Source: a plasmid. From it: 64,000 bases of DNA. Of this stretch, positions 1,137 through 21,589 are shown one piece after another. The translations under genes and the position numbers were made by a program. The stretch lies in the sequence record NZ_CP044066.1. One strand, written 5' to 3'. A model generated the notes under the pieces. It had not been told where the DNA came from. It did no database searches and saw only the letters and a program-made list of their open reading frames with translations. The first letter of the stretch is position 1. Each line of letters begins with the position of its first letter.

Positions 1137-3364
1137 TGAGGGACAAGAATCCCATGCCTTTAGAATCGCCCCCCCGGCTCGCCAATGCTGCACTGGTCAA
1201 AGGTGCCCCCCATGTTGCACAGTTTTATATTCCTACGTCGGCCTCCTTGCAAGAGCGCCGGCCGCGGACGCTGAAGCACGGAGATACTTTCGGGCTGTTC
1301 GATCATAACGGCGACGCGGTTGGCGCATTAGGCAGCCCTGAAGGGTTGTACCACTTAGATACGCGCCATCTGTCTTTCCTACAACTTACGCTCGACGGCG
1401 CCCGACCCATGTTGCTGTCTTCCACCTTGAGCGACGACAACTCGGCATTGACCTGTGATCTCACCAATCCCGATCTATCGGACGTGGAAGGAAATCTGAG
1501 GTTGGAGCGCGATTTGATTCATATACGCCGCACCCGATTCCTCTGGAATGGCACGTGCTACGAACGCATTATCGTGCGGAATTTTGACGAGTATCCCCGT
1601 CGCGTGCGATTCGACATAAGCTTCGATACCGATTTTGCCGACCTCTTTGAGGTGCGTGGAGCTCTGCGCCCGCGTCGGGGAACATTGCATGCGGTAAAGA
1701 TGTCCGAAGAAACGGCAACCTTGGGCTACACCGGCCTGGACAACGTTGTCCGAACTACGCAGGTGAGCTTTCATCCAGTCCCGCTTAACATGACCGGAGA
1801 CTGCGCGAGTTATGAGTTGATGCTTGAGCCGATGTCGGCGCAAAGACTCAGTGTCGAGATTCGATGTGCATCGCTCTCTGAAGAGCCCACAGGGCCAAGA
1901 ACGTTTCTGATGGCATTGCGCCAGTCCCGGCGAGAGTTGCAACGTATGTGTCGCCCCGAGGCTTTCGTCACTTCGTCCAGCGAGATGTTCAACGAACTGG
2001 CACGTCGCAGTGTGTCCGATCTGCATATGCTGCTGACCAATACGCCGTACGGCTTGTATCCGTATGCTGGGATCCCTTGGTTCAGTACGGCCTTCGGGCG
2101 CGACGCGATCATTACTGCCTTGCAGACACTATGGATGGACCCTCATCTCGCACGGGGTGTACTGCAATACCTCGGAGCGAAACAGGCTAAGTTCGTTGAC
2201 CACAAGGCTGACGCAGAACCAGGGAAAATTCTGCACGAGACACGCCACGGTGAGATGGCGCTGCTTGGGGAGGTTCCGTTCGGCCTTTATTATGGGAGTG
2301 TCGACGCCACGCCTCTGTATGTGGTTCTTGCAGGCGCGTACCTGCAGCGAACGGGAGACGTCAAGACCATCGCCGCGCTATGGCCGAATATTCTCGCTGC
2401 TCTTAACTGGATCACGGAATATGGCGACCGTGACGGAGATATGCTCGTTGAGTATGGCCGACAATCGCCGGATGGCCTCATCAATCAAGGGTGGAAGGAT
2501 AGTCGCGACTCCGTGTTCCACGCGGACGGCAAGCTCGCCCCCGGCCCTATCGCCCTCGTCGAAGTGCAAGCATATGTCTACGGTGCATGGCTAGCTGCTG
2601 CGGCAATCTGCGCGGCGCTTCAAGACACGTCGGGGGCTGCAACCTATACTTCCAAGGCTGAAGCACTACGCGAGGCTTTCGACGCGCGATTCTACGACGC
2701 AGAGCTGGGGACCTACGTTCTTGCTCTCGATGGGGACAAGCGCCCGTGCAGGGTGAGCACCTCCAATGCGGGACATGCACTCTTTACGGGTATCGCACGG
2801 CCTGATCGCGTGCCATCGGTCATCGCCAAGCTGATGGGCAACACGAGCTTTTGTGGTTGGGGAGTTCGGACAGTATCCACAGATGCGCCGCGCTTCAATC
2901 CTATGAGCTATCACAACGGCTCCGTGTGGCCACACGACAATTCGCTGATTGCGGCAGGTATGGCCCGTTATGGCTATCATGGCGAGGCTGGGCGAATCTT
3001 CGAAGGCCTGTTCGCAGCCTCTGGATACATCGATCAACGCCGTCTGCCAGAGCTTTTTTGCGGATTTCCTCGCCAGCGCAGCCAAGGCCCGACCTTTTAC
3101 CCTGTGGCATGCGCCCCACAAGCTTGGGCAGCTGCGGCGCCACTTCTGCTTCTGCAGGCTTGTCTCGGCTTGGACTTTGATCCGCACGGGCCTGTCATCA
3201 CCTTCGATGCACCATCCCTGCCCGGATTCCTCGATGAAGTCTTTCTCGGCAACCTGAGTGTCGGCGATGGGAGTGCGGATGTTGCGATCCGCCGTATGGG
3301 CGGTCGAGTGGTCGTTGATGTGATGGCACGCCGAGGTGAAGTCCGGGTGCTGACGCGAACCTAA
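1136..3364 (+). CDS. Amylo-alpha-1,6-glucosidase / glycogen-debranching-enzyme-like (GDE_N + GDE_C six-hairpin glycosidase)
   Basis: 742-aa ORF translationally coupled to the upstream GT. Conserved GDE_C-type segments are present (GIPWFSTAFGRDAIIT, GKILHE.RHGEMA, INQGWKDS, YHNGSVWPHDN). A GT plus GDE pair is a common arrangement. Confidence 0.8.
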   Translation: MRDKNPMPLESPPRLANAALVKGAPHVAQFYIPTSASLQERRPRTLKHGDTFGLFDHNGDAVGALGSPEGLYHLDTRHLSFLQLTLDGARPMLLSSTLSDDNSALTCDLTNPDLSDVEGNLRLERDLIHIRRTRFLWNGTCYERIIVRNFDEYPRRVRFDISFDTDFADLFEVRGALRPRRGTLHAVKMSEETATLGYTGLDNVVRTTQVSFHPVPLNMTGDCASYELMLEPMSAQRLSVEIRCASLSEEPTGPRTFLMALRQSRRELQRMCRPEAFVTSSSEMFNELARRSVSDLHMLLTNTPYGLYPYAGIPWFSTAFGRDAIITALQTLWMDPHLARGVLQYLGAKQAKFVDHKADAEPGKILHETRHGEMALLGEVPFGLYYGSVDATPLYVVLAGAYLQRTGDVKTIAALWPNILAALNWITEYGDRDGDMLVEYGRQSPDGLINQGWKDSRDSVFHADGKLAPGPIALVEVQAYVYGAWLAAAAICAALQDTSGAATYTSKAEALREAFDARFYDAELGTYVLALDGDKRPCRVSTSNAGHALFTGIARPDRVPSVIAKLMGNTSFCGWGVRTVSTDAPRFNPMSYHNGSVWPHDNSLIAAGMARYGYHGEAGRIFEGLFAASGYIDQRRLPELFCGFPRQRSQGPTFYPVACAPQAWAAAAPLLLLQACLGLDFDPHGPVITFDAPSLPGFLDEVFLGNLSVGDGSADVAIRRMGGRVVVDVMARRGEVRVLTRT

Positions 3365-3384
3365 TTCGTCCCGCTTAAAGAAAA

Positions 3385-3410
3385 GGGCGGGCGTAGCCGC
3401 CCTTCTCCGT
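3385..3410 (+). terminator. Putative intrinsic terminator after the GDE-like gene
   Basis: GC hairpin GGGCGG-gcgtag-CCGCCC followed by a pyrimidine/T-rich tract (ttctccgtct), 20 nt after the stop. Confidence 0.4.
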
Positions 3411-3428
3411 CTGCTGTTCTTCGCTATC

Positions 3429-3450
3429 GGCGCGTCACGAGTGACGCGCC
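3429..3450. repeat. Perfect 22-bp palindrome (10-bp arms, 2-nt centre)
   Basis: ggcgcgtcac-ga-gtgacgcgcc reads identically on both strands. It lies in the intergenic region between the GDE-like gene and a small minus-strand gene. Confidence 0.6.
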
Positions 3451-3584
3451 TGGTGCGAAAACGAACGGCAAATCAGAACATGGCACATGGGCGCGTATCC
3501 CTGCTACAGAGGAGGCCCGCTCACCGTAGGAAATCCGGGGCAGCGACAGTCATATGCTTTGCCGCCTCTGCATAGGGGCGCGCA

Positions 3585-3818
3585 TTACACGCTTTGATCG
3601 CCTTTTTCGCGGCCAGCGGTTTGCTGGGGTTCGCGTTGTTCTTTCTTGTCATCGTCTTCGAGCTGCGCATCGGTACCGCCCTCCTCCTCTTCTGGCTGCG
3701 TTCCCTGCTCGTCCTGCTCCTGAATTGGGAGCGCCCCGCTCTTGTCCTTTGCGCCGTCAACTTCGTCAGGTTGCTGCGGCTTGCCCTGCTGCTGATTCTG
3801 TCCAGGTTGCTGTGCCAT
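3585..3818 (-). CDS. Small (77 aa) highly acidic, Q/E/D-rich low-complexity hydrophilic protein
   Basis: Internal ATG of the 87-aa track ORF is preceded by a strong SD (AAGGAGttcatcATG). The sequence is disordered (MAQQPGQNQQQGKPQQPDEVDG...EEEEGGTDAQLEDDDKKEQ). The longer overlapping 217-aa minus and 186-aa plus ORFs look like GC artefacts. Confidence 0.5.
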   Translation of the reverse strand: MAQQPGQNQQQGKPQQPDEVDGAKDKSGALPIQEQDEQGTQPEEEEGGTDAQLEDDDKKEQREPQQTAGREKGDQSV

Positions 3819-4230
3819 GATGAACTCCTTGTCGTGGCTGAATGCCACATGAGGGTAGTCGCAAGGCGCGTACCAACTTGGGAACGTTCGTCTCCCAGAA
3901 AGAAAAGAATCCGCGACGAGCCATGGTCATGCTGTGGAGAGTCTTCCTCAAAAGCGACGGCCATTGACCAGTTCCACATCTCTCGTATTTGTACCGGTAA
4001 CGAACCTTCTTCTTGTAGTAATCGGTGGACCGACGGTGCGTTGCCCTCCCCGGTTCGATGCCCTTCTGGTTGCCCGGATAGTGGACGAGATCCGCTCATC
4101 CAAGGGAATCTCAAGGCCCGTAGCGGGACGCTAGTGATTTTCCGGCCGGGGTAACTGAGCTCGTGAAGCATCAACGTGGGCTGGGTACAGAGCTTGCGTT
4201 GGTGTTCAGACTAATGAAGGGGCATCGTCC

Positions 4231-5442
4231 ATGAGTCATCCGAGCGGCATGCATCAGAAATCGTTCCATATTCTGCTGGGGGTGGTGACGATTGCCTTCT
4301 TCTGGCTCTTGCTTCCTTTCTATGGAGCAGTGTTCTGGGGCGCGGTGCTCGCCGTCATCTTTGCGCCGGTCCAGCGGCGCCTCGTTAAGCGCCTTCACGG
4401 CCGACGAACCATCTCGGCACTGCTGACGCTGCTACTTGTACTTGTGCTGGTCATCCTGCCACTCTCTCTCGTCACAATCTCATTGGTGGATGAAGGCGCA
4501 AATCTGTACGAGAAAATTCGAGTAGGTCAGATCGACTTTGGCGTCTACTTTCAGCAAGCCTTCGAAGCGCTACCACAGTCTGTGCGAGCGACATTGCTGC
4601 GCTTTGACATCGGAGGTGTTTCAGACATCCAGGACAAGCTAAGTGCGAGCGTGATGCAGGCAAGTCAATTCTTAGCCACGCGCGCCTTGAGCATCGGCCA
4701 GAACGCCGTACACCTTATGATCGGGTTCGGGATCATGCTTTACCTGTTGTTCTTCTTGTTGCGCGATGGCCCGGCGCTGTCGCTCAGGCTGCAGCTTGTC
4801 GCACCACTCAGCCCATCACATCAGCAGCATCTCATTCGCAAGTTCACCACGGTGGTTCGCGCGACAGTCAAAGGCAACATCGCGGTTGCGCTTGCACAGG
4901 GAGTCCTGGGCGGAGCGATTTTTGGAGTGCTCGGAATCCAGGGCTCCCTTCTGTGGGGCGCGCTCATGGCGGTGCTGTCGCTTCTCCCAGCGATTGGGGC
5001 GGCACTCATCTGGGCTCCGGTCGCGATCTACTTCTTGCTGACAGGAGAACTGGTGAGCGGATTTATCCTGCTGGGATTCGGTGTGCTGGTCATTGGCCTG
5101 GTGGACAACGTTCTGCGACCGATTCTCGTCGGAAAGGACACCCAGATGCCGGACTACGTCATCTTGATTGCCACGCTGGGCGGTATGGCGCTTTTTGGAC
5201 TCAACGGTTTCGTCATCGGGCCGCTCATCGCGGCCCTCTTCATCGCAGCCTGGGACTTGACCAGCTTCAGTACCAGCACGACCACCACTCTGTCGCAGGA
5301 CGACCGCGGTGCCTATGCAGGGTCACTGGATGAACTGACGCCATCCGAAGTTGGTGGCGTGTACGCAAAACCCTCGTTGCAAGGCTCGCTTCACCAGCAG
5401 GTGGACCTGGGCCAGCCTCGTTATCTTCTCACGAGGCGCTGA
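4231..5442 (+). CDS. AI-2E family transporter (PerM/YdiK/YhhT, UPF0118)
   Basis: 403 aa with about 8 TM helices and a conserved G-rich C-terminal half (LIGLVDNVLRPILVGKDTQMP, GGMALFGLNGFVIGPL). SD aagggg lies 9 nt upstream. Confidence 0.85.
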   Translation: MSHPSGMHQKSFHILLGVVTIAFFWLLLPFYGAVFWGAVLAVIFAPVQRRLVKRLHGRRTISALLTLLLVLVLVILPLSLVTISLVDEGANLYEKIRVGQIDFGVYFQQAFEALPQSVRATLLRFDIGGVSDIQDKLSASVMQASQFLATRALSIGQNAVHLMIGFGIMLYLLFFLLRDGPALSLRLQLVAPLSPSHQQHLIRKFTTVVRATVKGNIAVALAQGVLGGAIFGVLGIQGSLLWGALMAVLSLLPAIGAALIWAPVAIYFLLTGELVSGFILLGFGVLVIGLVDNVLRPILVGKDTQMPDYVILIATLGGMALFGLNGFVIGPLIAALFIAAWDLTSFSTSTTTTLSQDDRGAYAGSLDELTPSEVGGVYAKPSLQGSLHQQVDLGQPRYLLTRR

Positions 5443-5634
5443 GTCGGTTTGTCGGACATGGCATCGGCAAAGGATGCGCTATCCGGGCATGAGTCCCCCG
5501 AATCCGCCCGAGGTGCGAGTACGCTCTGGTACGACTATTGCGGGACAGATAGCGGCAAGCAAGCGGGAGTCTCAGTCGTGAGGGTGGCAGTGCCGAGGCT
5601 TCCTGCGGTAGTTCAGTGGCTAGGAGATGATGTC

Positions 5635-5895
5635 ATGGAACGGACAACAGAGTATCGCGGTTTCGGCATTCGCGTCGAGCTCGAGAACGTAGCTAAGGAT
5701 ATGTTTGATGTATGGTTTCAGATCGAGGGGCCGGCATCGTCGCAAGGTACGAAGTCGATTGGGGAACGTACAAAAGTCTTCGCTGGCCCATATAGCCGAC
5801 GCTGGGCCTATCTCGTTGCAGAGCTTGGCGGCCGAGCTGCGGTGGATGTCGTCCTCAGTCTGGGCTTACTCCCGCAACAGAAGGACGTAATCTGA
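5635..5895 (+). CDS. Hypothetical small protein (86 aa)
   Basis: Internal ATG preceded by GGAGAtgatgtcATG. No recognisable family. Part of the 148-aa track ORF. Confidence 0.3.
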   Translation: MERTTEYRGFGIRVELENVAKDMFDVWFQIEGPASSQGTKSIGERTKVFAGPYSRRWAYLVAELGGRAAVDVVLSLGLLPQQKDVI

Positions 5896-6014
5896 AGCGT
5901 CGGCGGTGTAGCGAAACCGCAGACGCGAAAGGCTCTGCCCGTGTGAGCCAATCGACGAACGCAGAACGTTGAACTCGCTAGCTATAACGACGCCAGCACG
6001 AAGCCGGGGCGGTG

Positions 6015-6875
6015 TTACCAGGTGGAGATGGCCTTTGCTGTGAAAACCGGCATCTCGATTCCAGCGGGCAAATCGACACATGCTTGGACGGTTACCTGAG
6101 GACGCTCAGAATCCACACTACCAAAGATTGCGGCAAATGGCATGGCGGAGGCATCAACGCCGGTGCCGATGCGTAGCAATCCGGTTGGGATCGAGATGCC
6201 GGACGGATCTAGCAGGTACCATCGGTGAGAAAGATAGACTTCCACCACCGCATGAAAGTCAGATGGGCTTCTTCTGGTGTCTGCTCCATAGTCCAGGCTG
6301 CTTGACATGCGTGCGGGAATGCTCAGCGCACGACAGATTGCTATCATCAGGTGCGCGTAGTCGCGGCAAACGCCGGCACGTTCGACAACAGTATCCAAGG
6401 CCGATGTCCGCTCGTTAGTTGAATGCGAGAGAAAGCGGACGTGATTTCGGACCCATTCTCGGATCGCGTAGACGCGGGCATATCCCTGGCGCATGGTGCC
6501 GAACTCACGCATCGAGAATTCCATGAGACGGTCCGATTCGCAGTAGCGACTGGGGGTTATGTACCTGAGAACTTCGAACGGAAGTTCCGCAACTGGGATC
6601 TCAGCTAACGATTCGGTCTCGTCGAGCGCGTGGTCGATGTTTACTACGGCCTCGTAGCTTACCGTGAAGGGTCCTCTGGGGACTCTCAGCCTCAGCAGCC
6701 GATTGCACAAGACAGGATCGGTATAACGGCTCGCTATGACTGAGGGCGGAACTTCCATTCGTTCGAATACCACGGACTGCCGAGCAGTATTCGCCGCTTC
6801 AATATTAAGAATGAAGTCCGCCCAAGCATCCTTAACGTTGTAAGAAAGTTGCACAGTGTATTGAAGTCGATTCAT
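6015..6875 (-). CDS. Transglutaminase-like family protein (Bact_transglu_N + transglutaminase core)
   Basis: The Cys-His-Asp core is recognisable (GVCRDYAHLMIAICRALSIPAR, HAVVEVYL, LLDPSG). Start chosen at MNRLQ with SD ttaaGGGGAAGccagATG. The upstream extension of the track ORF overlaps nhaA. Confidence 0.8.
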   Translation of the reverse strand: MNRLQYTVQLSYNVKDAWADFILNIEAANTARQSVVFERMEVPPSVIASRYTDPVLCNRLLRLRVPRGPFTVSYEAVVNIDHALDETESLAEIPVAELPFEVLRYITPSRYCESDRLMEFSMREFGTMRQGYARVYAIREWVRNHVRFLSHSTNERTSALDTVVERAGVCRDYAHLMIAICRALSIPARMSSSLDYGADTRRSPSDFHAVVEVYLSHRWYLLDPSGISIPTGLLRIGTGVDASAMPFAAIFGSVDSERPQVTVQACVDLPAGIEMPVFTAKAISTW

Positions 6876-6954
6876 CTGGCTTCCCCTTAAGTGAGCGAGT
6901 CTGGTTCCCGAGTCCCGTTCCTCGCCCGGTGCTGAACGCCATCTAGATCTTCGC

Positions 6955-8271
6955 TCACGTTGAGCTTCGCGCCGCAAACAGGAACCTCAACGCCAGCATT
7001 CCAATCGACGCGGAGATCAGCGAAGCGGCCAAGATGCCAACCTTCACCGAGCCTATCAGTTCGGGGCTAAACGACAGCCCCCCAATGAACAGCGCCATGG
7101 TAAATCCGATGCCAGCTAGCACGCTGCCTGCTGCCAGGATCGGCCAGGGAAGATCGTTTGGCCGATGGGCGAGCCCCAGTTCTACGAATAGTGCGCAGCA
7201 CACGACGATTCCTACGGGCTTGCCCACCACAAAGCTAAGGAAGATAGCGGTCGCGAGTGCGGGATCCACCGTAGCGGGAACGAAGGTAACGCCCGCGTTT
7301 GCTAACGCAAACACTGGCATGACAGCAAAAGCGATCCAGGGGTGAAGGGCGATTTCGAGCCGTTCGATAGGAGACATTGCTTCCCGAGTTGCCACTTCCG
7401 CACGTTGCAGGTCTCGTCGTCCCGCCGTATCGCCGCTCCAATGCCGCCCAGGGGGATAGGCGACTACCCTGTCGAGGATGGCGTGTAGGCGATCATCACT
7501 GACCCAGCTACGTGCAGGGGTCATCAATCCTAAGACTACGCCGGTCAAAGTGGCATGAATGCCTGACGCATCGACTGCGAGCCAGATTGCTACGCCGAGC
7601 ACAAAGTAGAACGGAAAGCTTCGAATCCCAACTTGCGCTGCTCCCAGAACAACCGCAAAACCGGATGACGCAAGAGCTAGTGGCAACCACTGCAAAGCGC
7701 CGCTATAGCTGACAGCGACCACGACGATCGCTGCAATATCGTCGAAGATGGCAAGAGCCAGCAGGAACAGTCGCAGGCTTTCGGGGATACGACGCCCGAG
7801 TAGGGCGAGGCAACCGATCACAAAAGCAGTGTCGGTGGACATCACTGTCCCCCACCCTCCCGCGCTAGGGTTGTCACCTACCAAGCCCAGAAAGATTGCC
7901 ACAGGAAATATCATTCCGCCGAAGGCGCCGGCCAGAGGCATCACCGCGATCCTGAGGTCGCGGAGCTCTCCGAGCACCATTTCTCGCTTCAACTCCAGCG
8001 CGACGACAAAGAAGAACAGAGTCATCAAGCCGTCATTGATCCAGTGCTGTATCGAGCGGGTGAATTCGAGATTCCCCAATGAGAAGCCAAAGCGCGTCTC
8101 CCAAAGTGAGAAATACTGAGAGGCCCATCCGGAGTTCGCTAGGGAAAGCGCAACGACAACGCAAACGAAGAGCACAGCCCCGGCCATCGCTTCAATGCGA
8201 AGAAAGCGCATGAATGGGCCGGTGAAGTGGTCTGCCAGCTCCCGCGGGAGGTGTCCAATATCTTCGTTCAT
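6955..8271 (-). CDS. nhaA: Na+/H+ antiporter NhaA
   Basis: 438-aa polytopic membrane protein with typical NhaA segments (FFVVALELKRE, AIFDDIAAIVVVA, ALANAGV). Confidence 0.9.
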   Translation of the reverse strand: MNEDIGHLPRELADHFTGPFMRFLRIEAMAGAVLFVCVVVALSLANSGWASQYFSLWETRFGFSLGNLEFTRSIQHWINDGLMTLFFFVVALELKREMVLGELRDLRIAVMPLAGAFGGMIFPVAIFLGLVGDNPSAGGWGTVMSTDTAFVIGCLALLGRRIPESLRLFLLALAIFDDIAAIVVVAVSYSGALQWLPLALASSGFAVVLGAAQVGIRSFPFYFVLGVAIWLAVDASGIHATLTGVVLGLMTPARSWVSDDRLHAILDRVVAYPPGRHWSGDTAGRRDLQRAEVATREAMSPIERLEIALHPWIAFAVMPVFALANAGVTFVPATVDPALATAIFLSFVVGKPVGIVVCCALFVELGLAHRPNDLPWPILAAGSVLAGIGFTMALFIGGLSFSPELIGSVKVGILAASLISASIGMLALRFLFAARSST

Positions 8272-8883
8272 CCCTCTCTTCCGTTAAGGGTGCAGCGGAC
8301 CATGCCTGCTTCATCACCACGATGCGAAAAGCCGTCGCCGGGGTCGGCTTTCGCCGAGTCGCCGACGTGAGAACGAACGCGACCAGGATGTTTGATTGGT
8401 AACAGCGAACGATCGCTGACGCGGACATAGTTGCGACATTCGTGCCACCAAGCAGCGCACGACGAATGCACAGCCGTCATAGCCGAAGTGTTACTTCCTC
8501 GCGAGGCTCCGCGTATTTGGGGTCAGAAAAAGTGGGGGTATCACGCCGGTGGGCGAGGAGCGCCGTCTGCATCATCGGCAATCTAGGGTTGGCGCTTTCT
8601 TCATCCGCGTTGAGTCAAGGCGTGGACTGCGACGTTGTCTGGCGTCCGAACGTGACTTCTGAAATCACCCCTCATTTTGCGGTGCAGAGGGCGTGTGTGT
8701 GCTTGAGACACGAATGACGTCTGCTGAGGTTCCGTGATCGCAACGCGTCAGCCGCGAAATGCGCGGGAGGCGAAGAGGCCAAAACCGCCGCCGAAGCCAA
8801 AGGTTCCCGCAAGCCCCGCCGGTAATGCTCAGCGTCCTACTATGAACAAGGATGTGGCGAGTAAGAGATCGGCCTGACCCGTT

Positions 8884-9096
8884 TCAGGTCTTCGTGCGCC
8901 GTTTAGGCTTCAGAGTCTTGGGCGCGAGTACCGCGGTCCAGAATTTGGTCACCTGCGTAGCGGCTTCGGTAGCCGCTGTCACACTCTGACGTTTCGCCTC
9001 GGCAGTGATTCGCCCGCGCGCGCTACTCGAAACCCGATTGGCCTGGCTCAGCCACATACTCATAAAAGGGTTCTTCTTAATCCATGGATTTTTCAT
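8884..9096 (-). CDS. Hypothetical small basic protein (70 aa)
   Basis: ORF with GGAG 7 nt upstream of the ATG. Sequence MKNPWIKKNPFMSMWLSQANRVSSSARGRITAEAKRQ...; family not recognised. Confidence 0.35.
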   Translation of the reverse strand: MKNPWIKKNPFMSMWLSQANRVSSSARGRITAEAKRQSVTAATEAATQVTKFWTAVLAPKTLKPKRRTKT

Positions 9097-9149
9097 GAGA
9101 GCTCCAGTACGGTCGTCGCTTTCGAAAATTTGATGGCGTCCGCCATCAG

Positions 9150-9449
9150 TTAGATGTTGGCTTTCTCGATCCCGCCGGCATCGGAAGGGCGGAGGCCACT
9201 AAGTGCGCTGGATAAGGTCTTGCCCTCGTGAGACCCTATGATGCCTCTCAACATGTCCGTTGCGGCCACGACCTCGCCCAGATCCTCCCCATTGCGTTCG
9301 AAGCGGAGCATTTCGTCGTACTCCTTGGCAATGCGCTTCGCTATTGACCGAACGAATCCCGGGTGCAGCTCGCCTTTGATTGACCCAGCGACAACATGCC
9401 GGGTCAACGTTGCAAGGCCCTCGAAGGTCGTTTCAGTCTTGATCGACAA
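9150..9449 (-). CDS. Hypothetical protein (99 aa, TTG start)
   Basis: ORF of reasonable composition. The start is TTG with no convincing SD. Confidence 0.3.
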   Translation of the reverse strand: MSIKTETTFEGLATLTRHVVAGSIKGELHPGFVRSIAKRIAKEYDEMLRFERNGEDLGEVVAATDMLRGIIGSHEGKTLSSALSGLRPSDAGGIEKANI

Positions 9450-9830
9450 ACTTTGTTCGATGATTCTCCCCTGGAGGCGACGGCCTCGTTCGCGGCGAAA
9501 TTCTCATGGTCTGCCAAGACTACCTGGCAGTAATTCGGCGAGTCGCAGCTGTCGCAGATCAATATCGGACGTTGACCGCATTGCCTACATCCCGAAATCA
9601 GATAATCTGGCTACGCGCTGCTTTGACCGGTGCATGCGAATGACAACTGCGAGTTGTGGTGGCCGATGTCCAGGCGATCCAATTTGCTCGCGACAAGCCT
9701 GACAGCGCGGCATAGTCTTCCATTCTGGTGATGGCTCCTAACGAGAAGGATGCCGGGATAATTAAGGTCTTCGCGGCGATCGCAGAACGGTGCCCACTTA
9801 TGACGACGGCCGGTTGGCCGTAGGTGTAGA

Positions 9831-9862
9831 CCCTAGCGCAATGATCCCCTAGCGCAATGATC
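9831..9862. repeat. Perfect 16-bp tandem duplication (ccctagcgcaatgatc x2)
   Basis: Two identical adjacent 16-mers inside an approximately 750-bp stretch (9450-10200) that lacks convincing ORFs. Confidence 0.7.
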
Positions 9863-10205
9863 GTGCCGTGTGGGGTGCCTGACGGTCCAGACATTCCCTT
9901 AGAGCGTTCAGCGCATCGTGCTCAGCCCCCTGGCTCTGCGGGGAGCGGCGTGATTGTTATTCCCGCTAGGGCAGCGATTCCGAAGATACAGTCACGACAG
10001 GCAGCTCGTTCGACTGCGGTGTGCGGATATCGCAGACCTCCCCGATGGTGACCGTCCCGTCCAAACTGTACGTTTGCAGAAAGGTTCGGTACGTCCGGTT
10101 GACGATTGCAAAGATGGGTAGGCGCGTCGCGCGCCTCATTCGCTTGAGACGCCAGTACTTACGACTGAAATTGATGCCCATGTAGGACGCCAGCGGCTAC
10201 CGTCG

Positions 10206-10700
10206 TTGAAGAATTCGGAGAATGATCGAGCATCGTTTGCGGCGGCCTGCGCGCTACACCACCCTCTGCCGAACGGAACTCTGACGGAGGCTTCCATGAT
10301 GTTTCATCGATTCCTGATCGGATCAACGACCTCTGAGGCTGTGGTGGAGGTTCATCTCATTCAGTCTCTTCCGGCAGACTGGGACGTCCTAGTTCGGATA
10401 GAGACGGGCATCCAGGCTTTGCGCGAGACGCACCAAGCAATCCCTCCCTATCTGCTAGTGCACGATCGATCTTGGCAGCAAGTGGTTTTCCAATGCGAGA
10501 GAATGATCAAAAGGGTTCATCGTTTTTCTTATGATTCACTTCCCGATTTTCTAGACCAGCATATCCGGCACAATTTTCACGCGCACGATTTGCAGGCCTT
10601 GGGTTGCCGGGAACTTTTGAGTGAAAAGCCTGATCCGCCAGCCCCTTTGCGCCAGAAAGCAAGCATTAGGAACACGAGACGTAGCCGCCCGGTGGCATGA
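10206..10700 (+). CDS. Hypothetical protein immediately upstream of the KaiC-like gene (probable start at MMFHRF, about 133 aa)
   Basis: ORF ending 37 nt before the KaiC-like start. No family recognised and no KaiB-like thioredoxin fold is evident. Confidence 0.3.
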   Translation: MKNSENDRASFAAACALHHPLPNGTLTEASMMFHRFLIGSTTSEAVVEVHLIQSLPADWDVLVRIETGIQALRETHQAIPPYLLVHDRSWQQVVFQCERMIKRVHRFSYDSLPDFLDQHIRHNFHAHDLQALGCRELLSEKPDPPAPLRQKASIRNTRRSRPVA

Positions 10701-10736
10701 ACGTTGCCTCTGGCAGGGGACCAGGGGAATCGAACC

Positions 10737-12212
10737 ATGACGCAATCCGATCGACTAGAAACAGGAATCCGCGGATTGGACACTATCCTCTGCGGAGGCC
10801 TCTTGCGCGGTGCATCGTTTATCGTCCAGGGGAGCCCCGGGGCTGGGAAAACGATACTCGCCAACCAAGTGGCCTTCTTCCAGGCACGGCAGGGAACTCG
10901 GGTCTTGTACGTGACTCTCCTCGCGGAATCCCACGACAGACTTCTTCGGTCACTTTCGGCGTTCGATTTCTACGATGCATCGATCGTCGACACGGAAATA
11001 CTCTATATCAGCTTGTCCAAGGTTCTCCGCGAAGCTGGATTGACCGGGCTCATCCGAGCGCTTCGCACCGAGCTCGTTCGTCAGCGCTGCACCATGCTGA
11101 TCCTGGACGGCTTTCTAATGGCAAAGGATGGCGGCGCGGCGGCGTCAGAGATCAAGACGTTTATCGCGGAGCTTCAGAGTCATGCCGCTCTCATCGGCAG
11201 CACCGTGCTTTTGCTCACTAGTGCGCAGACAGAAGCCGGAAGTTTCGAGCACACGATGGTCGATGGTGTGCTCCAACTCGAGGAAGAATTGGTTGGCATA
11301 CGCGGCGTACGTCTGATTCGCGTTGCAAAGTCTCGCGGCAGCGCATGTGTTGCCGGACTTCATCAGTTCTCCATTTCAAGCGGTGGCATCGAGGTCTTTC
11401 CTCGCCTTGAGGCGCTAGGTAGCACATCAAATGACGAGACGCACGGTATCGAAGAGCGGGTCGCAAGCGGAGTCCAGGGATTCGAAAAGATATCAGGCGG
11501 AGGACTTCTCGGTCCGTCCGTTACCCTCCTTATGGGTCCTCCGGGGAGTGGGAAGACGACATTTGGTCTGAACTTTGTTAGCACCGCTACGCCCGAGTAT
11601 CCAGCGCTGTTCTTCGGTTTTTATGAATCCCCGACACGACTCCGCATAAAGGCCCGGGAGCTTCGCCTCTCAATAGAAACACTTGAGCACGGTGGCGCGC
11701 TCCATGTCTACTGGAATCCGTTGCGCGAGAACCTGCTCGATTTCTTAGGGCACAGACTGCTCGACACCATCCGCACACATCGGATCCGGCGGTTGTTCAT
11801 CGACGGAATCGCGGGCTTCCAGCGCGCCGCGGTCCATCCTGCCCGCCAGATCGAGTTCTACTCCGCTCTTACGACCGAGCTGCGAGAGATGGGCACAACA
11901 ACCGTAGTTTCACTCGAAATGCGCGGCAGTTCTGGATCTGCTCATACGCCGCTGCCAGAGTACTCGAGCTTGATGGAAAACCTGGTGCATTTACGGCATG
12001 TCGTAATCGATGGCGAACTACGGCGCTCGTTTCACATCGTCAAGATGCGAGACAGCGTATTCGACAACGGGCTGCACGAAGTGCACATTGGGCAGGGAGG
12101 GTTGCGCATTGGCGGCCGGCTGGCGATTCCGCCCGATTGCCCTTTCGGGTGTCCTTTGGCCGCCGACTCCGGCCAGCCACTTAAATCCGGGCGCGAGCCA
12201 TGGCAACCGTAG
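10737..12212 (+). CDS. KaiC-like tandem RecA-superfamily ATPase (two KaiC domains)
   Basis: Two Walker-A-containing KaiC-type modules: GIRGLDTILCGGLLRGASFIVQGSPGAGKT in the first and GVQGFEKISGGGLLGPSVTLLMGPPGSGKT in the second. Start at ATG 10737 with SD GGGGAA. Confidence 0.8.
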   Translation: MTQSDRLETGIRGLDTILCGGLLRGASFIVQGSPGAGKTILANQVAFFQARQGTRVLYVTLLAESHDRLLRSLSAFDFYDASIVDTEILYISLSKVLREAGLTGLIRALRTELVRQRCTMLILDGFLMAKDGGAAASEIKTFIAELQSHAALIGSTVLLLTSAQTEAGSFEHTMVDGVLQLEEELVGIRGVRLIRVAKSRGSACVAGLHQFSISSGGIEVFPRLEALGSTSNDETHGIEERVASGVQGFEKISGGGLLGPSVTLLMGPPGSGKTTFGLNFVSTATPEYPALFFGFYESPTRLRIKARELRLSIETLEHGGALHVYWNPLRENLLDFLGHRLLDTIRTHRIRRLFIDGIAGFQRAAVHPARQIEFYSALTTELREMGTTTVVSLEMRGSSGSAHTPLPEYSSLMENLVHLRHVVIDGELRRSFHIVKMRDSVFDNGLHEVHIGQGGLRIGGRLAIPPDCPFGCPLAADSGQPLKSGREPWQP

Positions 12213-12565
12213 TCGTCGTCGACGATGAAACTATCAACGCCGATGCGTTGGCTGTCATGCTTGCATTGGAGGGCATCCGGACAATCACTGCAGCTGACGG
12301 CGCGGAGGGGCTGCGAATCATCGCGGCGGAAAAGCCCGACGCCGTCATTACCGACTTCATGATGCCAATCATGTCTGGGCTCGAGATGGCAAAGGCGATG
12401 CGCGCGGATTCTTTGCTCGCGAAAATACCGCTGGTCTTACTCACTGCCGCACAGGCGGAAATCGGATACCGTCACCCTGACCTATTTGATGCGGTGTTCA
12501 AGAAGCCTTGCGCCCCAGGCCACGTGATCGCGAGGCTTCTGGAGCTGATGGCGAGGTCCGCGTAG
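12200..12565 (+). CDS. Single-domain response regulator (CheY-like receiver)
   Basis: 121 aa with VVVVDDE...D(F)MMP...KIPLVLLTA. Overlaps the KaiC-like stop by 13 nt, so the two are likely co-translated. Confidence 0.8.
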   Translation: MATVVVVDDETINADALAVMLALEGIRTITAADGAEGLRIIAAEKPDAVITDFMMPIMSGLEMAKAMRADSLLAKIPLVLLTAAQAEIGYRHPDLFDAVFKKPCAPGHVIARLLELMARSA

Positions 12566-12867
12566 TTGGTTTCCGGGGCGAGAAAGCGTCGATGCGTCGG
12601 CTACTATCGTCGAAGAGTGCCCCGGTGCTGCGAAGGGCGCCCGCCAACAGGCAAGCTATGTCCTCTCTATCTTCCTGGATTGTTCACTGCTGACTACTTC
12701 GTACGGGCCCTTTGACGAAGCGTACGCCCGTCATTGGCAGCCGAGGCGCGTCGAAGACGCGTGGGCTTGTGTAGGAGGCGCTTTCAGTATATAAATTTAT
12801 CCATAAAACTACGACCTGCGAGAAAGCGGCTTCCTCCAGAGCCAGCACCCCTCAGGACCCTCGCTAC

Positions 12868-13782
12868 ATGGATAGTTTGTGGCTAACCGATCCAGGCCGC
12901 GCTTATTCTGACTGGCAGCACCGTGAAGCCGCCGGCGCGGATCGGCGACCATTCTCGGAGCGTTCAATCGTCCAACATCGTGCAATGTTTGATCGGTTTT
13001 ACCGTCACCTTTTGCGGCATGGAGCAACACTATCCAGCTTTGGCCCCGAGCTTCTGGACGGGTTCTGGCTAAACAAAGATGTCGCGGACCACAGCTTGTC
13101 CACGCGCATGCGTTATCTCAAGCTGGTAGACCGTCTGTGCCGGCAGTTGATGCTTGCCGGCGTGCGCACGAGCAACCCTGCCGCAGAACTGGTTCTGCGC
13201 ATGCAGTGGCCGCAGGACGACCCGCCGCTGCATTTCCTGCCCAAGGACGTCGAACTGCGACTGCAGGCCTTTACGCAGCCGGTCGCAGGCGATGACCTTG
13301 TGGCAACTCGATGTCGCGCGATCGTGGCAATGTTTCTCGGTACCGGCGTGACGGCACGAGAAGGCCGGCATGCCCTCATGCATGACTTGCATCTTCGTGG
13401 GCGTTCGCCCTATTTGCACATACCCGCGAAGCGGCCCCGCATTGCTCGAACTGTGCCCGTCGAGCCGTTTGCCATCGCCCCCCTCTCACGGTGGCTGAAA
13501 ATTCGCGGGAGGCTGGCAGTTCAAGGCGAACTCCTATTTACTCTTCGGCAACTGGGTACCCCCGTCACTGACATGAGTTTGGGGAATATTATCCGCACGG
13601 CTTTCGTCAGTATCGGCCACACGGCGGCGGAAATGGGGCCACAGATTCTTCGAAACACGTACAGCCGACGGCTGCTTTCAGAAGGCCTTGCACCCCCGGA
13701 AGTCTCGCTGCGGTTGGGGCTGACCAGTCGCCGTACGGTCGATAGGATTTGCGCAACACTTCCTAGACCACGAAGCGATTAG
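12868..13782 (+). CDS. Tyrosine-recombinase/phage-integrase-family protein (divergent)
   Basis: N-terminal core-binding-like region and a C-terminal ILRNTYSRRLL box resembling HxLRHT(F/Y)A. No obvious nucleophilic Tyr is visible in the last 40 aa. Confidence 0.55.
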   Translation: MDSLWLTDPGRAYSDWQHREAAGADRRPFSERSIVQHRAMFDRFYRHLLRHGATLSSFGPELLDGFWLNKDVADHSLSTRMRYLKLVDRLCRQLMLAGVRTSNPAAELVLRMQWPQDDPPLHFLPKDVELRLQAFTQPVAGDDLVATRCRAIVAMFLGTGVTAREGRHALMHDLHLRGRSPYLHIPAKRPRIARTVPVEPFAIAPLSRWLKIRGRLAVQGELLFTLRQLGTPVTDMSLGNIIRTAFVSIGHTAAEMGPQILRNTYSRRLLSEGLAPPEVSLRLGLTSRRTVDRICATLPRPRSD

Positions 13783-13971
13783 TCGTCAGATGCGTCTCAA
13801 GGAAAAGGCGGCGCTGCTGCAGCGCTTGACCTGCGCGCAAATACCCGTTTGGGTTAGACGTAACGTCAGTCGTCGCACTACGGTGAGCCGTAAGTGAGTA
13901 CTGAACAACGGTACTTTAAGCTGACATTGTGGACAGTGGACGGGTCCCCGTTTGCACATAGACTCAAGTGC

Positions 13972-14037
13972 CCCTCCCGCTTTTGGAGGGTTTATCCAGT
14001 CTAAATCGGTTGCCCGTCTTCGGACGGGCTTTTTTTT
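13972..14037 (+). terminator. Tandem intrinsic terminators
   Basis: First hairpin is CCCTCC-cgctttt-GGAGGG+TTT. Second hairpin is GCCCGTC-ttcg-GACGGGC followed by T8. They sit between the convergent integrase-like and resolvase-like genes. Confidence 0.7.
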
Positions 14038-14056
14038 GCGGGTCAAGAGTTCTTAC

Positions 14057-14662
14057 TTACCGTCGCTGGGACTCAACGGTATCGGTCAGTTTCTCATCCC
14101 TGATACGCATGATCGTCTGCCGAGATACGCAGAACGATCGAGCGATCTCGGTAACAGATGCGCCTGTTCGAAGCGATGCGAGGATATCGGTACGCGCCGA
14201 GGCAGAGAGGGTGGGCTTGCGGCCGAGGCGACGTCCAAGCTCCGTAGATGCCGTGGCGCTCTCCTTCATGCGCAAGCTGCGAGTCTGGTAGTCAAGTTGA
14301 CTGACTGCCGCCAATGTAAGCATGGCCGGCGAACAAGCAGATGTCAGGAGATCGCCACCACCCAGCTCTATACATTGGGCGCTCGCACCAAGTGCCTTAA
14401 AACGTTCAAGTGTCTCCAGCACGTCCCGGACATTGCGCCCAAGACTCGCCAACTTCAGCGTGAAAATGGTGTCGCCTGCGCGAATGCGCCGCAGCATACT
14501 TTGCATTCCGGGCCTTTCGAGTGCGGAGCGCGATTGAGACTCACGCTCACACCACGCACGCCGCAGATCTACCACGATGCCCGCCGCGTCGAACGCACGG
14601 ATCTCCTCCTCGAATTCCTCGAGGGTGGCGGCACCATTTGTGTAGAAGTAGTTCGCACTCAT
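14057..14662 (-). CDS. Serine-recombinase (resolvase/invertase) homologue with apparently substituted catalytic residues
   Basis: Clear resolvase C-terminal HTH (GRRLGRKPTLSASARTDILASLRTGASVTEIARSFCVSRQTIMRI) and core (DTIFTLKLASLGR, ERFKALG). Aligned to Tn3/gamma-delta resolvase, the YARVST nucleophile box reads YTNGAAT (R8 to N, S10 to A) and KLDRLGR reads KLASLGR (D67 to A, R68 to S). Confidence 0.6.
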   Translation of the reverse strand: MSANYFYTNGAATLEEFEEEIRAFDAAGIVVDLRRAWCERESQSRSALERPGMQSMLRRIRAGDTIFTLKLASLGRNVRDVLETLERFKALGASAQCIELGGGDLLTSACSPAMLTLAAVSQLDYQTRSLRMKESATASTELGRRLGRKPTLSASARTDILASLRTGASVTEIARSFCVSRQTIMRIRDEKLTDTVESQRR

Positions 14663-15950
14663 GGGATCTCCGAGCGGACCATGCATGGCCCGCTCTCTGA
14701 ATCATACTATCTTGCGTATCTCGCATGCTACAGGAGTGGGCCCTCCTTGCAGGGGGCGCAGATGACCTCATGTCAATCGATTAGGAAGGTCCTTGCTGCT
14801 ACCAAGTAGACGGGAGTGGACCGCAGGGTCCCAAGAAGCGTTGTTGATCAACGTGAGGGGAAGACCGCGCCGAAACTCATACTCCTTGCGTAGGGATCAG
14901 CAAGAGAAGACGCGAAAAATTCTGAAGTCGGCCACCCCGCCTACGGGCGGCGGCGGGAACGCATAGCTTCAACACGGATCCCAAATCGCCGTTGCTGTGC
15001 GATTGTTATCGCCAAGCCAGCGCATTAGGAATAAACCCATTCAATCGATTCTCGATGTGAACCAATAATACGTGCCAGTAGGTGCGATCGAGCTGTAGGA
15101 CGCGCTACATCAACCGCCGCAGAGGTTGCGGCTTCACGCGTTGTCGTGGCTTAAGTCCAAGCAGGAAAAATTTGAGTGCACATGCCTCGCCGAAGCCACG
15201 GATATATGTATATCAACAGGCCATATGTCCCTCTCTAACATCACCTGACGCATTTCCTCCTTTCTCGCGGACTCCATCCAACTAATTCCCAGTCATCTTG
15301 AATTTAGTGCACTCCTAATCGACGCATGGTTCGTGCCCCTCGTCTTTCGGTGCTACGGATCCATCCGAGGAACCTTGCACCTGATCCGTCCCCGGAACTG
15401 CGCAGACTTGTAACGCCCAGTCGCTGGACTCTGGTTCTATCCCACGACTCTTACATTGCAAGCAAGCCTAGGCGGCCGCCGCGATGTGCTGGAACCTCGA
15501 GCAGCCAAGTAAGAACCCCCGATGGTTGGCCCTCGTTGCGCTCCAATCAAACGATGTGACCGAACTAATCTCTCATAGCGTCGCGAAGAAACATGCCAGA
15601 TCCGATTCCAGTTGTCGTGCTGGGATGACTGGCCAGGGACGTGCAGATCAGAAGTCTAAAACTCAGCGCCGCAGTGCTCAAAGACGCCCTACCCCGCGCG
15701 GTCACCACCGCCGAGAACATGCGAATACGAGCCATGATGTACATACGACTGATCAACAAGCAGCTGGCAAGGATGTCTCTTAAGGCCAAGGCCATAGGCT
15801 GCTGAGGATCGGTTCTGTCTCCGTATGTTAATCACGGCTCGTGCTATCAGTACCCCGCGCTATTCGTGGCAACGGTCTACCGATCTACCGGGCGACGGGC
15901 ATGCAACGCTCCCGCGGAGCCGCCTAGCTTGATAAGGCAGGTCACAGCCA

Positions 15951-16865
15951 TCACGCCGGCAGCGTGGCGTCCCGGTGCCGGAACGCGGCTTGCCGGACGC
16001 AGTGGATGAAGTAGTCGGACGGTGCGCTCAGGATCGCGCCTTCACGTTGCAGCAAAGCCATCTGCAGCGTGGGTGGGTCCTCCGGCAGATTCAATTGGAC
16101 CAACTGAGAGTCGGGGTCGAGAATCAGCACGTGCCGCGTCAGCGCCATCACGGTGTCAACGTTGAGCAGCAACTTGCTCGTCAGCAGGTTCGAGGTGCAA
16201 CGCGTGATGCGGCGGGGCGGCGGCAGGCCATAGCGCGCGAACGCCGCTTCGAGATAGCGCGGAAACTGTTCCGTACCATCGGCGTGCAGCCATTCGGCAT
16301 CCTGCAGCTCGGCGAAGCTGGTCGCGCTGGCATGACGGCTGCCCCGGCGCGTCGCGAAGGCGGTCGGAAACGATAACAGCGGCTCGCAGGTCACGAAGGC
16401 ATCGGCCGGCGGTGCGCCCGGTATCGCCGCCAAAGCGAAGTCCAGGCGGCTATTGCGAAGGTTGTCGAGCAACTTCGGCAGGTTCCACTCGCGGAACTCG
16501 ACGGCCACCTCAGGCATAGCCGAGCGAAACGGCACAAACGCCTCCGCAATTAGCGTAGCACCAGCTAGCGGCGATAGACCGATGCGCAATTGTCCGCCCA
16601 CCACGCCGCGCAACTCCGCCATATCTGCCTCGGCGCGCTCGAACTCATGCACGATCAGACGCGCGCGCGTCAGCAGTCGGCGGCCCTCGTCGGTAATCGA
16701 TACCCCCCACGAGTTGCGAGTGATCAATGACACCCCAACTTCGGATTCCAGCTCGCGCATGGTACGCGTGACGGCAGGCTGACTCACGCACAGGGTTCGC
16801 GCGGCCGCATTGATGCTGCCTTGTTCGGCGATGGCGGTGAGGGCCCGCAAATGGTGCAACTTCAT
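15951..16865 (-). CDS. LysR-family transcriptional regulator
   Basis: N-terminal HTH (MKLHHLRALTAIAEQGSINAAARTLCVSQPAVTRTMRELE). Divergent from the M20 peptidase gene. Confidence 0.85.
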   Translation of the reverse strand: MKLHHLRALTAIAEQGSINAAARTLCVSQPAVTRTMRELESEVGVSLITRNSWGVSITDEGRRLLTRARLIVHEFERAEADMAELRGVVGGQLRIGLSPLAGATLIAEAFVPFRSAMPEVAVEFREWNLPKLLDNLRNSRLDFALAAIPGAPPADAFVTCEPLLSFPTAFATRRGSRHASATSFAELQDAEWLHADGTEQFPRYLEAAFARYGLPPPRRITRCTSNLLTSKLLLNVDTVMALTRHVLILDPDSQLVQLNLPEDPPTLQMALLQREGAILSAPSDYFIHCVRQAAFRHRDATLPA

Positions 16866-20761: not shown

Positions 20762-21589
20762 TCACGTCATAGATCTCGTTCGTCGGGCGCGACGATCTGA
20801 ATCTGGAGGGTCCAATAGGTCGTCGCGCAGCGCACGAAGATGCTCGGCGTGTTCACGCATGCGATAGCTGTTGCCGCGGATGTTCACCAAATGGCAGTGA
20901 TGAAGGACTCGATCAATGAGCGCCGCTGCCATGACTTCGTCTCCGAACACAGAGCCCCATTCTTCGAATCCTTTGTTCGACGTCAGCACTGTCGATGCTC
21001 GCTCGTAACGCCGGTTCATGAGCTGGAAGAAGAGGACTGCACCCGCGTGAGTGATAGGTAGATAGCCGATCTCGTCGACAACCAGAACTGCAGGGTGGGA
21101 GAGCACGGCGAGTCGGCGCATTAGCTGGCCGGCAGCTTGAGCCTCTTCGAGAGACGCGATCAGATCGATCAGTGTGCCGTAGTACACGCGGCGACCGCGC
21201 TGCGCGGCGGCGATGGCAAGGCTGATCGCGAGATGGCTCTTGCCTACGCCTGGAGGGCCGAGGAGGACAACGTTCTCCTTGCGTTCTACGAAACCAAGCT
21301 CATGCAGGCTCTCGATCTGCTCGCGCTTGATTGAGGGCTGGAAGGCGAAATCGAAGCCCTCCAGCGTCTTTATTGCAGGTAGCCGGGAAGAACGCATTGC
21401 TGCCTGAAGCCGGCGATTGTTACGTAGCGTGATCTGAGCGCCGAGCAGGCGTTGGATAGCTTCCGAGGCAGTGAGCTGGCCACCATCGACTTCGCTGAGA
21501 ATCTGATCCGCCGCTTCCAGCGCGCCGGGCATCTTGAGGTCTGCCAGCATGCTCCGAATTGATTCCCGCGGGGAGCGTGCATTGTTCAT
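20762..21589 (-). CDS. istB: IS21-family helper ATPase IstB
   Basis: Walker A LLGPPGVGKSHLA and Walker B LVVDEIGY. Overlaps the istA stop by 4 nt. Confidence 0.85.
   Translation of the reverse strand: MNNARSPRESIRSMLADLKMPGALEAADQILSEVDGGQLTASEAIQRLLGAQITLRNNRRLQAAMRSSRLPAIKTLEGFDFAFQPSIKREQIESLHELGFVERKENVVLLGPPGVGKSHLAISLAIAAAQRGRRVYYGTLIDLIASLEEAQAAGQLMRRLAVLSHPAVLVVDEIGYLPITHAGAVLFFQLMNRRYERASTVLTSNKGFEEWGSVFGDEVMAAALIDRVLHHCHLVNIRGNSYRMREHAEHLRALRDDLLDPPDSDRRARRTRSMT

Follow-up and report, generated by a model that had tools for sequence, protein, structure and literature searches.

The 64,000-nucleotide (nt) stretch of plasmid record NZ_CP044066.1 that we analysed, called the window throughout, carries at positions 10,206 to 12,565 a gene for a KaiC-like ATPase that is preceded by a small orphan gene and followed by a gene for a single-domain response regulator, hereafter the receiver. 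We think it rather probable that this cassette is a plasmid-borne second copy of a proteobacterial pair, a KaiC-like ATPase and Ser autokinase together with its cognate receiver, that needs neither KaiB nor KaiA. The pairing of the two genes is strict. A scan with one genome per species matched at least 586 species; the 80 best loci were examined further, and 90 loci were collected overall. In 90 of these 90 loci (about 25 genera), the KaiC-like gene is followed directly, on the same strand, by a gene for a receiver homologue. The receiver, not a histidine kinase, is the invariant partner of the KaiC-like protein. The features of the cassette are as follows.

10296-10700, plus strand: small orphan gene, 134 amino acids (aa) from the ATG at 10296, recognized by conservation and purifying selection.
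10737-12212, plus strand: KaiC-like double-domain RecA-superfamily ATPase and putative Ser autokinase, 491 aa, recognized by two PF06745 matches, PDB sequences and Foldseek.
10830-10853, plus strand: Walker A motif GSPGAGKT of the first domain (CI), residues 32-39, from alignments.
11535-11558, plus strand: Walker A motif GPPGSGKT of the second domain (CII), residues 267-274, from alignments.
11964-11969, plus strand: Ser410-Ser411, aligned to the KaiC phosphosites S431/T432 in the alignment to PDB KaiC chains.
12200-12565, plus strand: single-domain CheY-like response regulator, 121 aa, QET03961, recognized by Pfam PF00072.

The reading frame of the KaiC-like gene (10704-12212) opens at a TTG, which would give 502 aa, and the starts of the homologues in a 20-sequence alignment all match the position of the internal ATG at 10737, which gives 491 aa. 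The 491-aa form is also the annotated one (QET03960/WP_150374025), on a 249,232-bp plasmid of Cupriavidus pauculus, a bacterium of soil and of clinical settings. A megablast of 9000-15000 against PLSDB gave no match, and the source was identified through the exact protein sequence. Pfam KaiC (PF06745) matches the protein in two stretches, one per half, with 186.6 bits and E = 5.7e-55, and the layout comprises CI at about residues 1-228, CII at about residues 240-461 and a tail at residues 467-491. An earlier note on this DNA had described a protein of this length with two KaiC/RecA modules, both Walker A motifs, and a 121-aa CheY-like receiver whose start overlaps the KaiC stop by 13 nt; all of these elements were recovered. 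The note had also named RadA/Sms as the family to which the protein might align better, and here the comparison favours KaiC. The NCBIfam KaiC alignment spans residues 14-470 with E = 1e-49, whereas the RadA model (TIGR00416) reaches E = 1e-15 and 57.3 bits against a cut-off of 403, with its best stretch at residues 14-72, the P-loop only. Matches to RadA/Sms, RadB, DnaB and IstB are confined to the neighbourhood of Walker A (about residues 14-90) and lie far under the cut-offs.

Comparisons with solved structures point in the same direction. The top 41 PDB sequence matches in a phmmer search are all KaiC, the best being 8zn5 (E = 7e-36); KaiC of Synechococcus elongatus matches at about 5e-32 (115-127 bits for the cyanobacterial proteins) and that of Rhodobacter sphaeroides at 8e-20 (75 bits). 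An AlphaFold2 model built with the 20-sequence alignment has a predicted local distance difference test score (pLDDT) of 82.8 and a predicted template modelling (TM) score of 0.80, with residues 231-235, 397-403 and 467-491 poorly defined. The top 50 Foldseek matches to this model are all full-length KaiC chains, about 25% identical in sequence and aligned over about 470-480 columns with TM scores of 0.72-0.80. By its sequence and its predicted fold, the large ATPase is KaiC-like and not merely another RecA-fold ATPase.

The residues of the KaiC-like protein were assigned from a HMMER alignment to PDB KaiC chains and from family alignments of 20 and 91 sequences. The Walker B aspartates are D124 in CI and D356 in CII. 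The catalytic Glu of CI is E64, in the motif LLAE[ST]H, and that of CII is E297, in the nearly invariant FGFYE[ST]; the Walker motifs A and B and, in each domain, one catalytic Glu do not vary within the KaiC-like family. The Glu-Glu pairs of KaiC are reduced, so that E77/E78 correspond to A63/E64 and E318/E319 to Y296/E297, with only the second Glu retained in each; the position of A63 holds Ser in 4 of the 91 KaiC-like sequences. E318 is the residue implicated in KaiC autophosphorylation. Because its position is taken by Tyr296, the KaiC-like protein's autokinase activity is not guaranteed. The residue pair aligned to the phosphosites is SS in 58 of the 91 family members and LS in 19, S411 being nearly invariant, and it is SS in all nine Pseudomonas and Phytopseudomonas members. 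At the position of KaiC T426 the protein has Pro. The CI domain is 6 residues shorter than in cyanobacterial-type KaiC according to the alignment, a gap that we take to coincide with the KaiB- and SasA-binding B-loop of KaiC. The C-terminal 25 residues (467-491) are poorly conserved and predicted to be disordered (pLDDT < 50).

The receiver matches Pfam Response_reg (PF00072) with 62 bits, above the cut-off of 30.2. Its start overlaps the stop codon of the KaiC-like gene (12210-12212) by 13 nt. The residues of its acidic pocket and their partners (D8/D9/E10, D52, T82 and K102) are all there, the phospho-acceptor Asp52 being encoded at 12353-12355, and there is no output domain. Across 91 receiver orthologues, which are mostly 118-140 aa long, D9, E10, D52, K102 and P103 are kept in at least 97%. 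The closest solved structures are ordinary receiver domains (VicR-like, PhoP, MtrA and DivK). Given the conserved acidic pocket, D52 and K102, and given that the best structural matches are ordinary receiver domains, its sequence identifies the protein as a bona fide single-domain response regulator, predicted to be phosphorylatable and not a pseudo-receiver.

The two genes have evolved together. Pairwise identities of the KaiC-like proteins and of the receivers correlate with r = 0.85 across 83 loci, as compared with a maximum of 0.11 in 500 label permutations; this strong correlation indicates that the pair is inherited as a unit. Both genes are under purifying selection in comparison with the closest relative, the ratio of non-synonymous to synonymous substitution rates (dN/dS) being about 0.13 for the KaiC-like gene and about 0.11 for the receiver gene. 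The spacing between the two genes is mostly 3-67 nt among the loci, and the 13-nt overlap is found only in the closest relatives of the window. The two genes are presumably co-transcribed and, in the window, probably translationally coupled.

Variants of the pair were seen at some loci. Eight of them (L020, L021, L023, L024, L026, L032, L043 and L044) hold a second receiver homologue about 100 nt after the first; these KaiC-like/receiver/receiver loci belong to Caballeronia, Trinickia, Paraburkholderia and Pararobbsia, and a kinase-like open reading frame (ORF) comes next in some. On the chromosome of C. plantarum (L004, 9468-10822), the receiver gene shares 4 nt at its stop with the start of a gene for a LysR-family regulator, which suggests a KaiC-like/receiver/LysR operon in the C. 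plantarum chromosomal-paralogue lineage only.

Homologues of the KaiC-like protein number in the thousands and were matched in at least 586 species, and the 80 best loci span Alpha-, Beta- and Gammaproteobacteria, including Pseudomonas. Cupriavidus provides the nearest of the matches listed, with 56-78% identity; those from Paraburkholderia, Caballeronia, Robbsia, Rhizobium and Microvirga come next, with 47-54%. Since C. pauculus and C. pampae also hold a chromosomal copy with 62-63% identity (L011, L015, L016), the plasmid copy is a second paralogue. The plasmid-type copy is also kept in C. pampae (L012) and on a metagenomic contig (L001). In other genomes we found mostly a chromosomal pair with no recombinase nearby. 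The arrangement is common and already described, and not new.

Neighbours and partners of the cassette were sought by profile searches over all ORFs of the loci. The earlier note had stated that neither KaiB nor KaiA stands beside the cassette, and this holds within the reach of our searches. No neighbouring ORF matches the Pfam KaiB model at E <= 10, and tblastn with an approximate query sequence found no KaiB-like sequence in the window or in the 90 loci. No KaiA domain occurs among the Pfam-scanned neighbours, no dedicated KaiA search of the whole window having been made. Ten kinase seeds of several types detected no kinase-like ORF of at least 100 aa in the 64-kb window. Elsewhere in the family, a histidine kinase of the HWE/PAS type is encoded divergently upstream in Rhizobium, downstream of the receiver in sphingomonads, and upstream on the same strand in several Pseudomonas. 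A kinase lies within 800 nt in 35 of the 80 loci according to an HWE-biased profile, and within the flanks in about half of all loci according to the ten seeds. That a kinase adjoins the pair in about half of the non-Cupriavidus loci suggests that the cassette normally works with one.

Two Pseudomonas loci of the fluorescens type (L091/L092, 3669-6829) carry the KaiC-like/receiver pair with no adjacent kinase, beside DUF1206 and CsbD genes. CsbD being a general-stress protein family, this setting fits a stress role.

The functional side of our reading draws on Pseudomonas. Among 1255 genomes of Pseudomonas, Terrettaz et al. did not detect any KaiB, and they sorted 222 KaiC homologues into three groups (bioRxiv 10.1101/2022.01.26.477890; also Environ Microbiol 25:894 (2023), as cited in PMC11372060). 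Members of their group III hold SS, and sometimes CS or SG, where KaiC has S431/T432, are neighboured by genes for a kinase, a single-domain receiver and CsrA/RsmA, and have their nearest relatives outside Pseudomonas in Rhizobiales (bioRxiv 10.1101/2022.01.26.477890). In stationary phase, the P. putida KaiC-like protein accumulates and becomes phosphorylated; it confers protection from osmotic and oxidative stress, and it binds itself, the kinase (at the PAS domain) and the receiver, the last in a two-hybrid assay; phosphorylation of the Pseudomonas protein tracks culture age and not circadian cues (bioRxiv 10.1101/2022.01.26.477890).

In the mechanism that we favour for the plasmid cassette, the KaiC-like hexamer would slowly hydrolyse ATP and autophosphorylate at Ser410/Ser411 according to time or energy state. 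Its phosphorylation state and conformation would be sensed by two proteins that touch it directly, the receiver and a PAS-containing histidine kinase that is presumably encoded elsewhere in the genome. In a phosphorelay, the receiver could use Asp52 to shuttle phosphate or to serve as a sink, or it could be an adaptor that binds KaiC; the output of the relay may tune stress and stationary-phase gene expression. The cassette would not be a self-sustained circadian oscillator. The earlier note had spoken of a non-circadian, KaiC-based signalling or stress module and not a clock. Our analysis supports that description, with its parts "not a clock" and "stress module" suggested by analogy with the Pseudomonas homologues and not by the sequence itself.

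Several observations weigh against this reading. The scores of the KaiC-like protein are far under the cut-offs of the NCBIfam KaiC equivalog models (NF006799, TIGR02655; 169.5 vs 408 bits and 107.2 vs 546.25 bits), so that, judged by these profiles, it does not qualify as a clock KaiC equivalog. In both catalytic pairs of KaiC the first Glu is substituted (E77 by Ala63 and E318 by Tyr296). A histidine kinase is missing not only from the window but also from the 6-8 kb around the pair in 11 of 11 Cupriavidus-clade loci. A CsrA/RsmA neighbour is likewise absent from the window and the 90 loci by tblastn, a weak test with an approximate E. coli CsrA query. The link to group III is indirect: it runs through the SS pair, the neighbouring genes and an identity of 48-50% to Pseudomonas members other than KT2440, a protein search with a Pseudomonas family member having given no match named as P. 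putida KT2440. The physiological role is extrapolated from another genus.

The constant presence of the receiver also allows the opposite direction of signalling. The receiver could be the input, docking on the hexamer when phosphorylated on its Asp and switching the autokinase and autophosphatase activities in place of KaiA and KaiB, which would make the pair a two-protein hourglass gated by phospho-Asp. We regard this as conceivable, if on the unlikely side. The receiver is the sole invariant partner, being present in 90 of 90 loci, while a kinase stands beside about half of the pairs and never in Cupriavidus; the two proteins co-diverge, and their genes overlap by 13 nt in the window and in its closest relatives. 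The KaiC-like protein and the receiver of P. putida interact in the two-hybrid assay (bioRxiv 10.1101/2022.01.26.477890), and receiver folds regulate KaiC elsewhere, as in the pseudo-receiver domain of KaiA and the receiver-KaiA chimera KaiA3 (PMC11372060). However, the receiver of the window has no KaiA-like C-terminal module, and an output partner would give equal co-divergence and synteny. That the pair might form a self-contained two-protein KaiC/receiver timer in hundreds of proteobacterial species, with the orphan protein as an extra, lineage-specific modulator in the plasmid lineage, appears unlikely to us.

A true KaiBC-type timer that drives daily rhythms with a KaiB encoded elsewhere, comparable to the hourglass of Rhodopseudomonas and Rhodobacter, seems very improbable. 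The double-domain fold, with a TM score of about 0.8 to S. elongatus KaiC, and the phosphorylatable residues at the positions of S431/T432 would suit it. Against this stand the lack of KaiB in the window, beside the 90 family loci and in the 1255 Pseudomonas genomes (bioRxiv 10.1101/2022.01.26.477890), and phosphorylation in Pseudomonas that follows the age of the culture and not circadian cues (bioRxiv 10.1101/2022.01.26.477890). The region of the B-loop is 6 residues short, the KaiC equivalog cut-offs are not reached, and the match to R. sphaeroides KaiC (75 bits) is weaker than those to the cyanobacterial proteins (115-127 bits), its long C-terminal extension being absent.

Decay of a non-functional plasmid duplicate is an explanation to which we also give very little credence. 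The gene is a second copy beside a chromosomal paralogue (62-63% identity; L015, L016), it sits in a rearranged region with an IS21 element and recombinases, and genes of its relatives are absent from the block. Yet both frames are intact and the catalytic residues are all retained, the KaiC-like, receiver and orphan genes are under purifying selection (dN/dS about 0.1), and both C. pampae and metagenomes retain the plasmid-type copy. Scarcely credible, finally, is a RecA/RadA-type ATPase of repair or recombination, or one assisting the adjoining recombinases or a defence system, with a likeness to KaiC that would reflect the RecA fold: a tyrosine and a serine recombinase do adjoin, NCBI names some family members "RAD55 family ATPase" and weak P-loop matches to RadA, RadB, DnaB and IstB exist, but those matches cover the Walker A region only (RadA 57.3 bits vs 403), the KaiC models cover residues 14-470, loci outside the closest relatives have no recombinases, and the family is consistently paired with a receiver rather than with a DNA enzyme. 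The reading as part of a defence system was rejected, PADLOC having given only sub-threshold P-loop noise.

The gene upstream of the pair merits separate treatment. The frame 10206-10700 is open for 164 codons from a TTG at 10206 and ends 36 nt ahead of the KaiC-like gene. A GGAGG stands 7 nt before the ATG at 10296, and the homology to the orthologue in L001 and L012 (66% aa identity) begins exactly at the Met-Met encoded there. Between the orthologues, the proportions of non-synonymous (pN) and synonymous (pS) differences are 0.18 and 0.71 in frame, as compared with 0.34/0.26 and 0.32/0.24 in the shifted frames; since this asymmetry is confined to the coding frame, we consider it a real gene of 134 aa. 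The earlier note had seen no KaiB features in this ORF, and we came to the same result: it has no match to Pfam or NCBIfam, nor by profile to the PDB, at E <= 10, and it shows no detectable sequence similarity to KaiB (PF07689). The AlphaFold2 model is all-helical but unreliable (pLDDT 45), KaiB being an alpha/beta protein. Two clusters among 5.8 billion proteins contain the orphan protein, and an exhaustive HMMER search of 1.84 billion representatives returned 3 true relatives and one repetitive protein. Because its clusters hold Logan-assembly sequences only, the gene is apparently unannotated in the GenBank record. It is lineage-restricted.

Further upstream, two small ORFs of 70 and 99 aa (8884-9096 and 9150-9449, both on the minus strand) have no Pfam match; the 99-aa ORF, also conserved in C. 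plantarum, is annotated as the hypothetical protein QET03959. The 16-mer CCCTAGCGCAATGATC is exactly duplicated in tandem at 9831-9862, in intergenic DNA upstream of the cassette.

Downstream of the cassette lie two recombinase genes with a terminator-like hairpin between them.

12868-13782, plus strand: tyrosine recombinase, 304 aa, Pfam Phage_integrase 28.3 bits, weak XerC/D.
14012-14029, plus strand: strong, GC-rich, terminator-like hairpin GCCCGTC-TTCG-GACGGGC followed by T8, from a consensus match alone.
14057-14686, minus strand: serine recombinase of the resolvase/invertase type, 209 aa, Pfam Resolvase E = 1.5e-10 and helix-turn-helix (HTH) domains.

The tyrosine recombinase gene begins 300 nt downstream of the cassette on the same strand and has 80% DNA identity to L001 and L012, and the serine recombinase gene has 70% DNA identity to L001. 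Recombinases are absent beside the cassette in loci other than the closest relatives; both recombinases are context and not core parts of the cassette. The plus-strand transcription unit may end at the hairpin between the integrase and resolvase genes.

The window shares synteny with two relatives, the metagenomic contig L001 and C. pampae L012, and the level of identity changes abruptly along it. The region 2477-8279, encoding sugar enzymes, an AI-2E transporter, a transglutaminase-like protein and NhaA, is 91-93% identical to L001/L012, whereas the block 8919-14671, which holds the small ORFs, the orphan gene, the KaiC-like and receiver genes and both recombinase genes, is 70-80% identical. 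The corresponding block of L001/L012 has additional genes for HU, an HTH protein and a 999-aa CheB-CheR-PAS-GAF protein. The identity step at 8279/8919 and the extra genes suggest a hot spot of recombination or exchange. The earlier note had called the module cargo carried next to recombinase genes. The plasmid location, the divergent block and the two recombinases agree with the label, while the pair is chromosomal and free of recombinases elsewhere, and a search for element boundaries in 8000-16200 found no inverted or direct repeats above chance. As no repeats above chance delimit the block, cargo is a reasonable and plausible label, but an unproven one.

A 15-nt near-identical direct repeat, AGCGGACCATGC[C/A]TG, occurs at 8294-8308 and 14673-14687, with one copy at each edge of the divergent block; chance alone would give about 1-2 such pairs in 8 kb, and it may mean nothing. 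The window contains no tRNA gene and no Rfam match. An IS21-family element occupies 20762-22647 on the minus strand, with istA at 21586-22647 (rve and HTH) and istB at 20762-21589. At 24183-26177 on the plus strand, a 664-aa He_PIG and Kelch-repeat protein is encoded; it is about 65% identical to a protein whose gene immediately precedes the chromosomal KaiC-like gene of C. plantarum and C. pampae. As parts of the module, the He_PIG/Kelch and LysR genes beside the chromosomal copies of these two species were considered and rejected as lineage-specific.

The locus alone adds little to what has been published for Pseudomonas, where the existence of such genes, the absence of KaiB and the stress role are already on record. 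Two results of the comparison could help those who study KaiC outside the cyanobacteria. That 90 of 90 loci have the receiver, an invariant partner that co-diverges with the KaiC-like protein, directs experiments to the contact between the two. The AE/YE signature, with Tyr at the position of E318, raises the question of how autophosphorylation proceeds without E318. The kinase-less Cupriavidus copies would offer a clean system for asking if the pair signals alone.

Among the known systems, archaeal KaiC-like ATPases share with the cassette the KaiC type of the RecA superfamily and a genomic linkage to two-component signalling proteins. Unlike the window protein, they are mostly single-domain, and they match one half of it with E values of 1e-8 to 1e-10. 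Such ATPases (ArlH, PH0284 and SSO2452) were reportedly proposed to be signal-transduction hubs by Makarova, Galperin and Koonin in 2017.

With cyanobacterial KaiC (Synechococcus elongatus; PDB 2GBL, 1TF7), the window protein shares the two-domain fold (TM 0.78-0.80 at about 25% identity), Walker A and B motifs in both halves, and hydroxyl residues at the phosphosites. It differs in having neither KaiA nor KaiB beside it, in the replacement of the EE pairs by AE in CI and YE in CII and of T426 by Pro, in the B-loop region that is shorter by 6 residues, and in a C-terminal tail that is short, unrelated and disordered. The KaiBC hourglass timers (Rhodobacter sphaeroides KaiC, PDB 8DBA/8FWI; Rhodopseudomonas palustris) likewise employ a proteobacterial KaiC homologue free of KaiA. 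In contrast to the window protein, which has neither a KaiB nor a long C-terminal extension, they require KaiB. Rhodobacter KaiC (568 aa) needs its long C-terminal coiled-coil extension.

The KaiBC module of Legionella pneumophila, as reported by Loza-Correa et al., resembles our case as a non-circadian, stress-linked reading of KaiC in a proteobacterium; in Legionella kaiB adjoins kaiC, whereas in the window the receiver gene takes this place. Closer in partner type is KaiA3 of Synechocystis, in which a phosphorylatable receiver domain is encoded beside a KaiC paralogue and KaiA3 acts on that KaiC (PMC11372060). KaiA3 differs from the bare 121-aa domain in the window by its C-terminal KaiA-like four-helix module, and it works with KaiB3 (PMC11372060).

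The resemblance to Pseudomonas group III, the type of P. putida KT2440, extends over more features. Both have a stand-alone, double-domain KaiC homologue without KaiB, an SS pair and a receiver gene in the same operon, and Rhizobiales are also among the closest non-Pseudomonas relatives of the window family. Alignments of the window protein with Pseudomonas members cover more than 90% of its length and show 48-50% identity. Unlike group III, the window cassette has no adjacent histidine kinase gene and no CsrA/RsmA gene; it is plasmid-borne, lies beside recombinases, has an orphan gene upstream, and shows the 13-nt overlap of its genes. Judged by sequence, the cassette joins the group III-like family already described.

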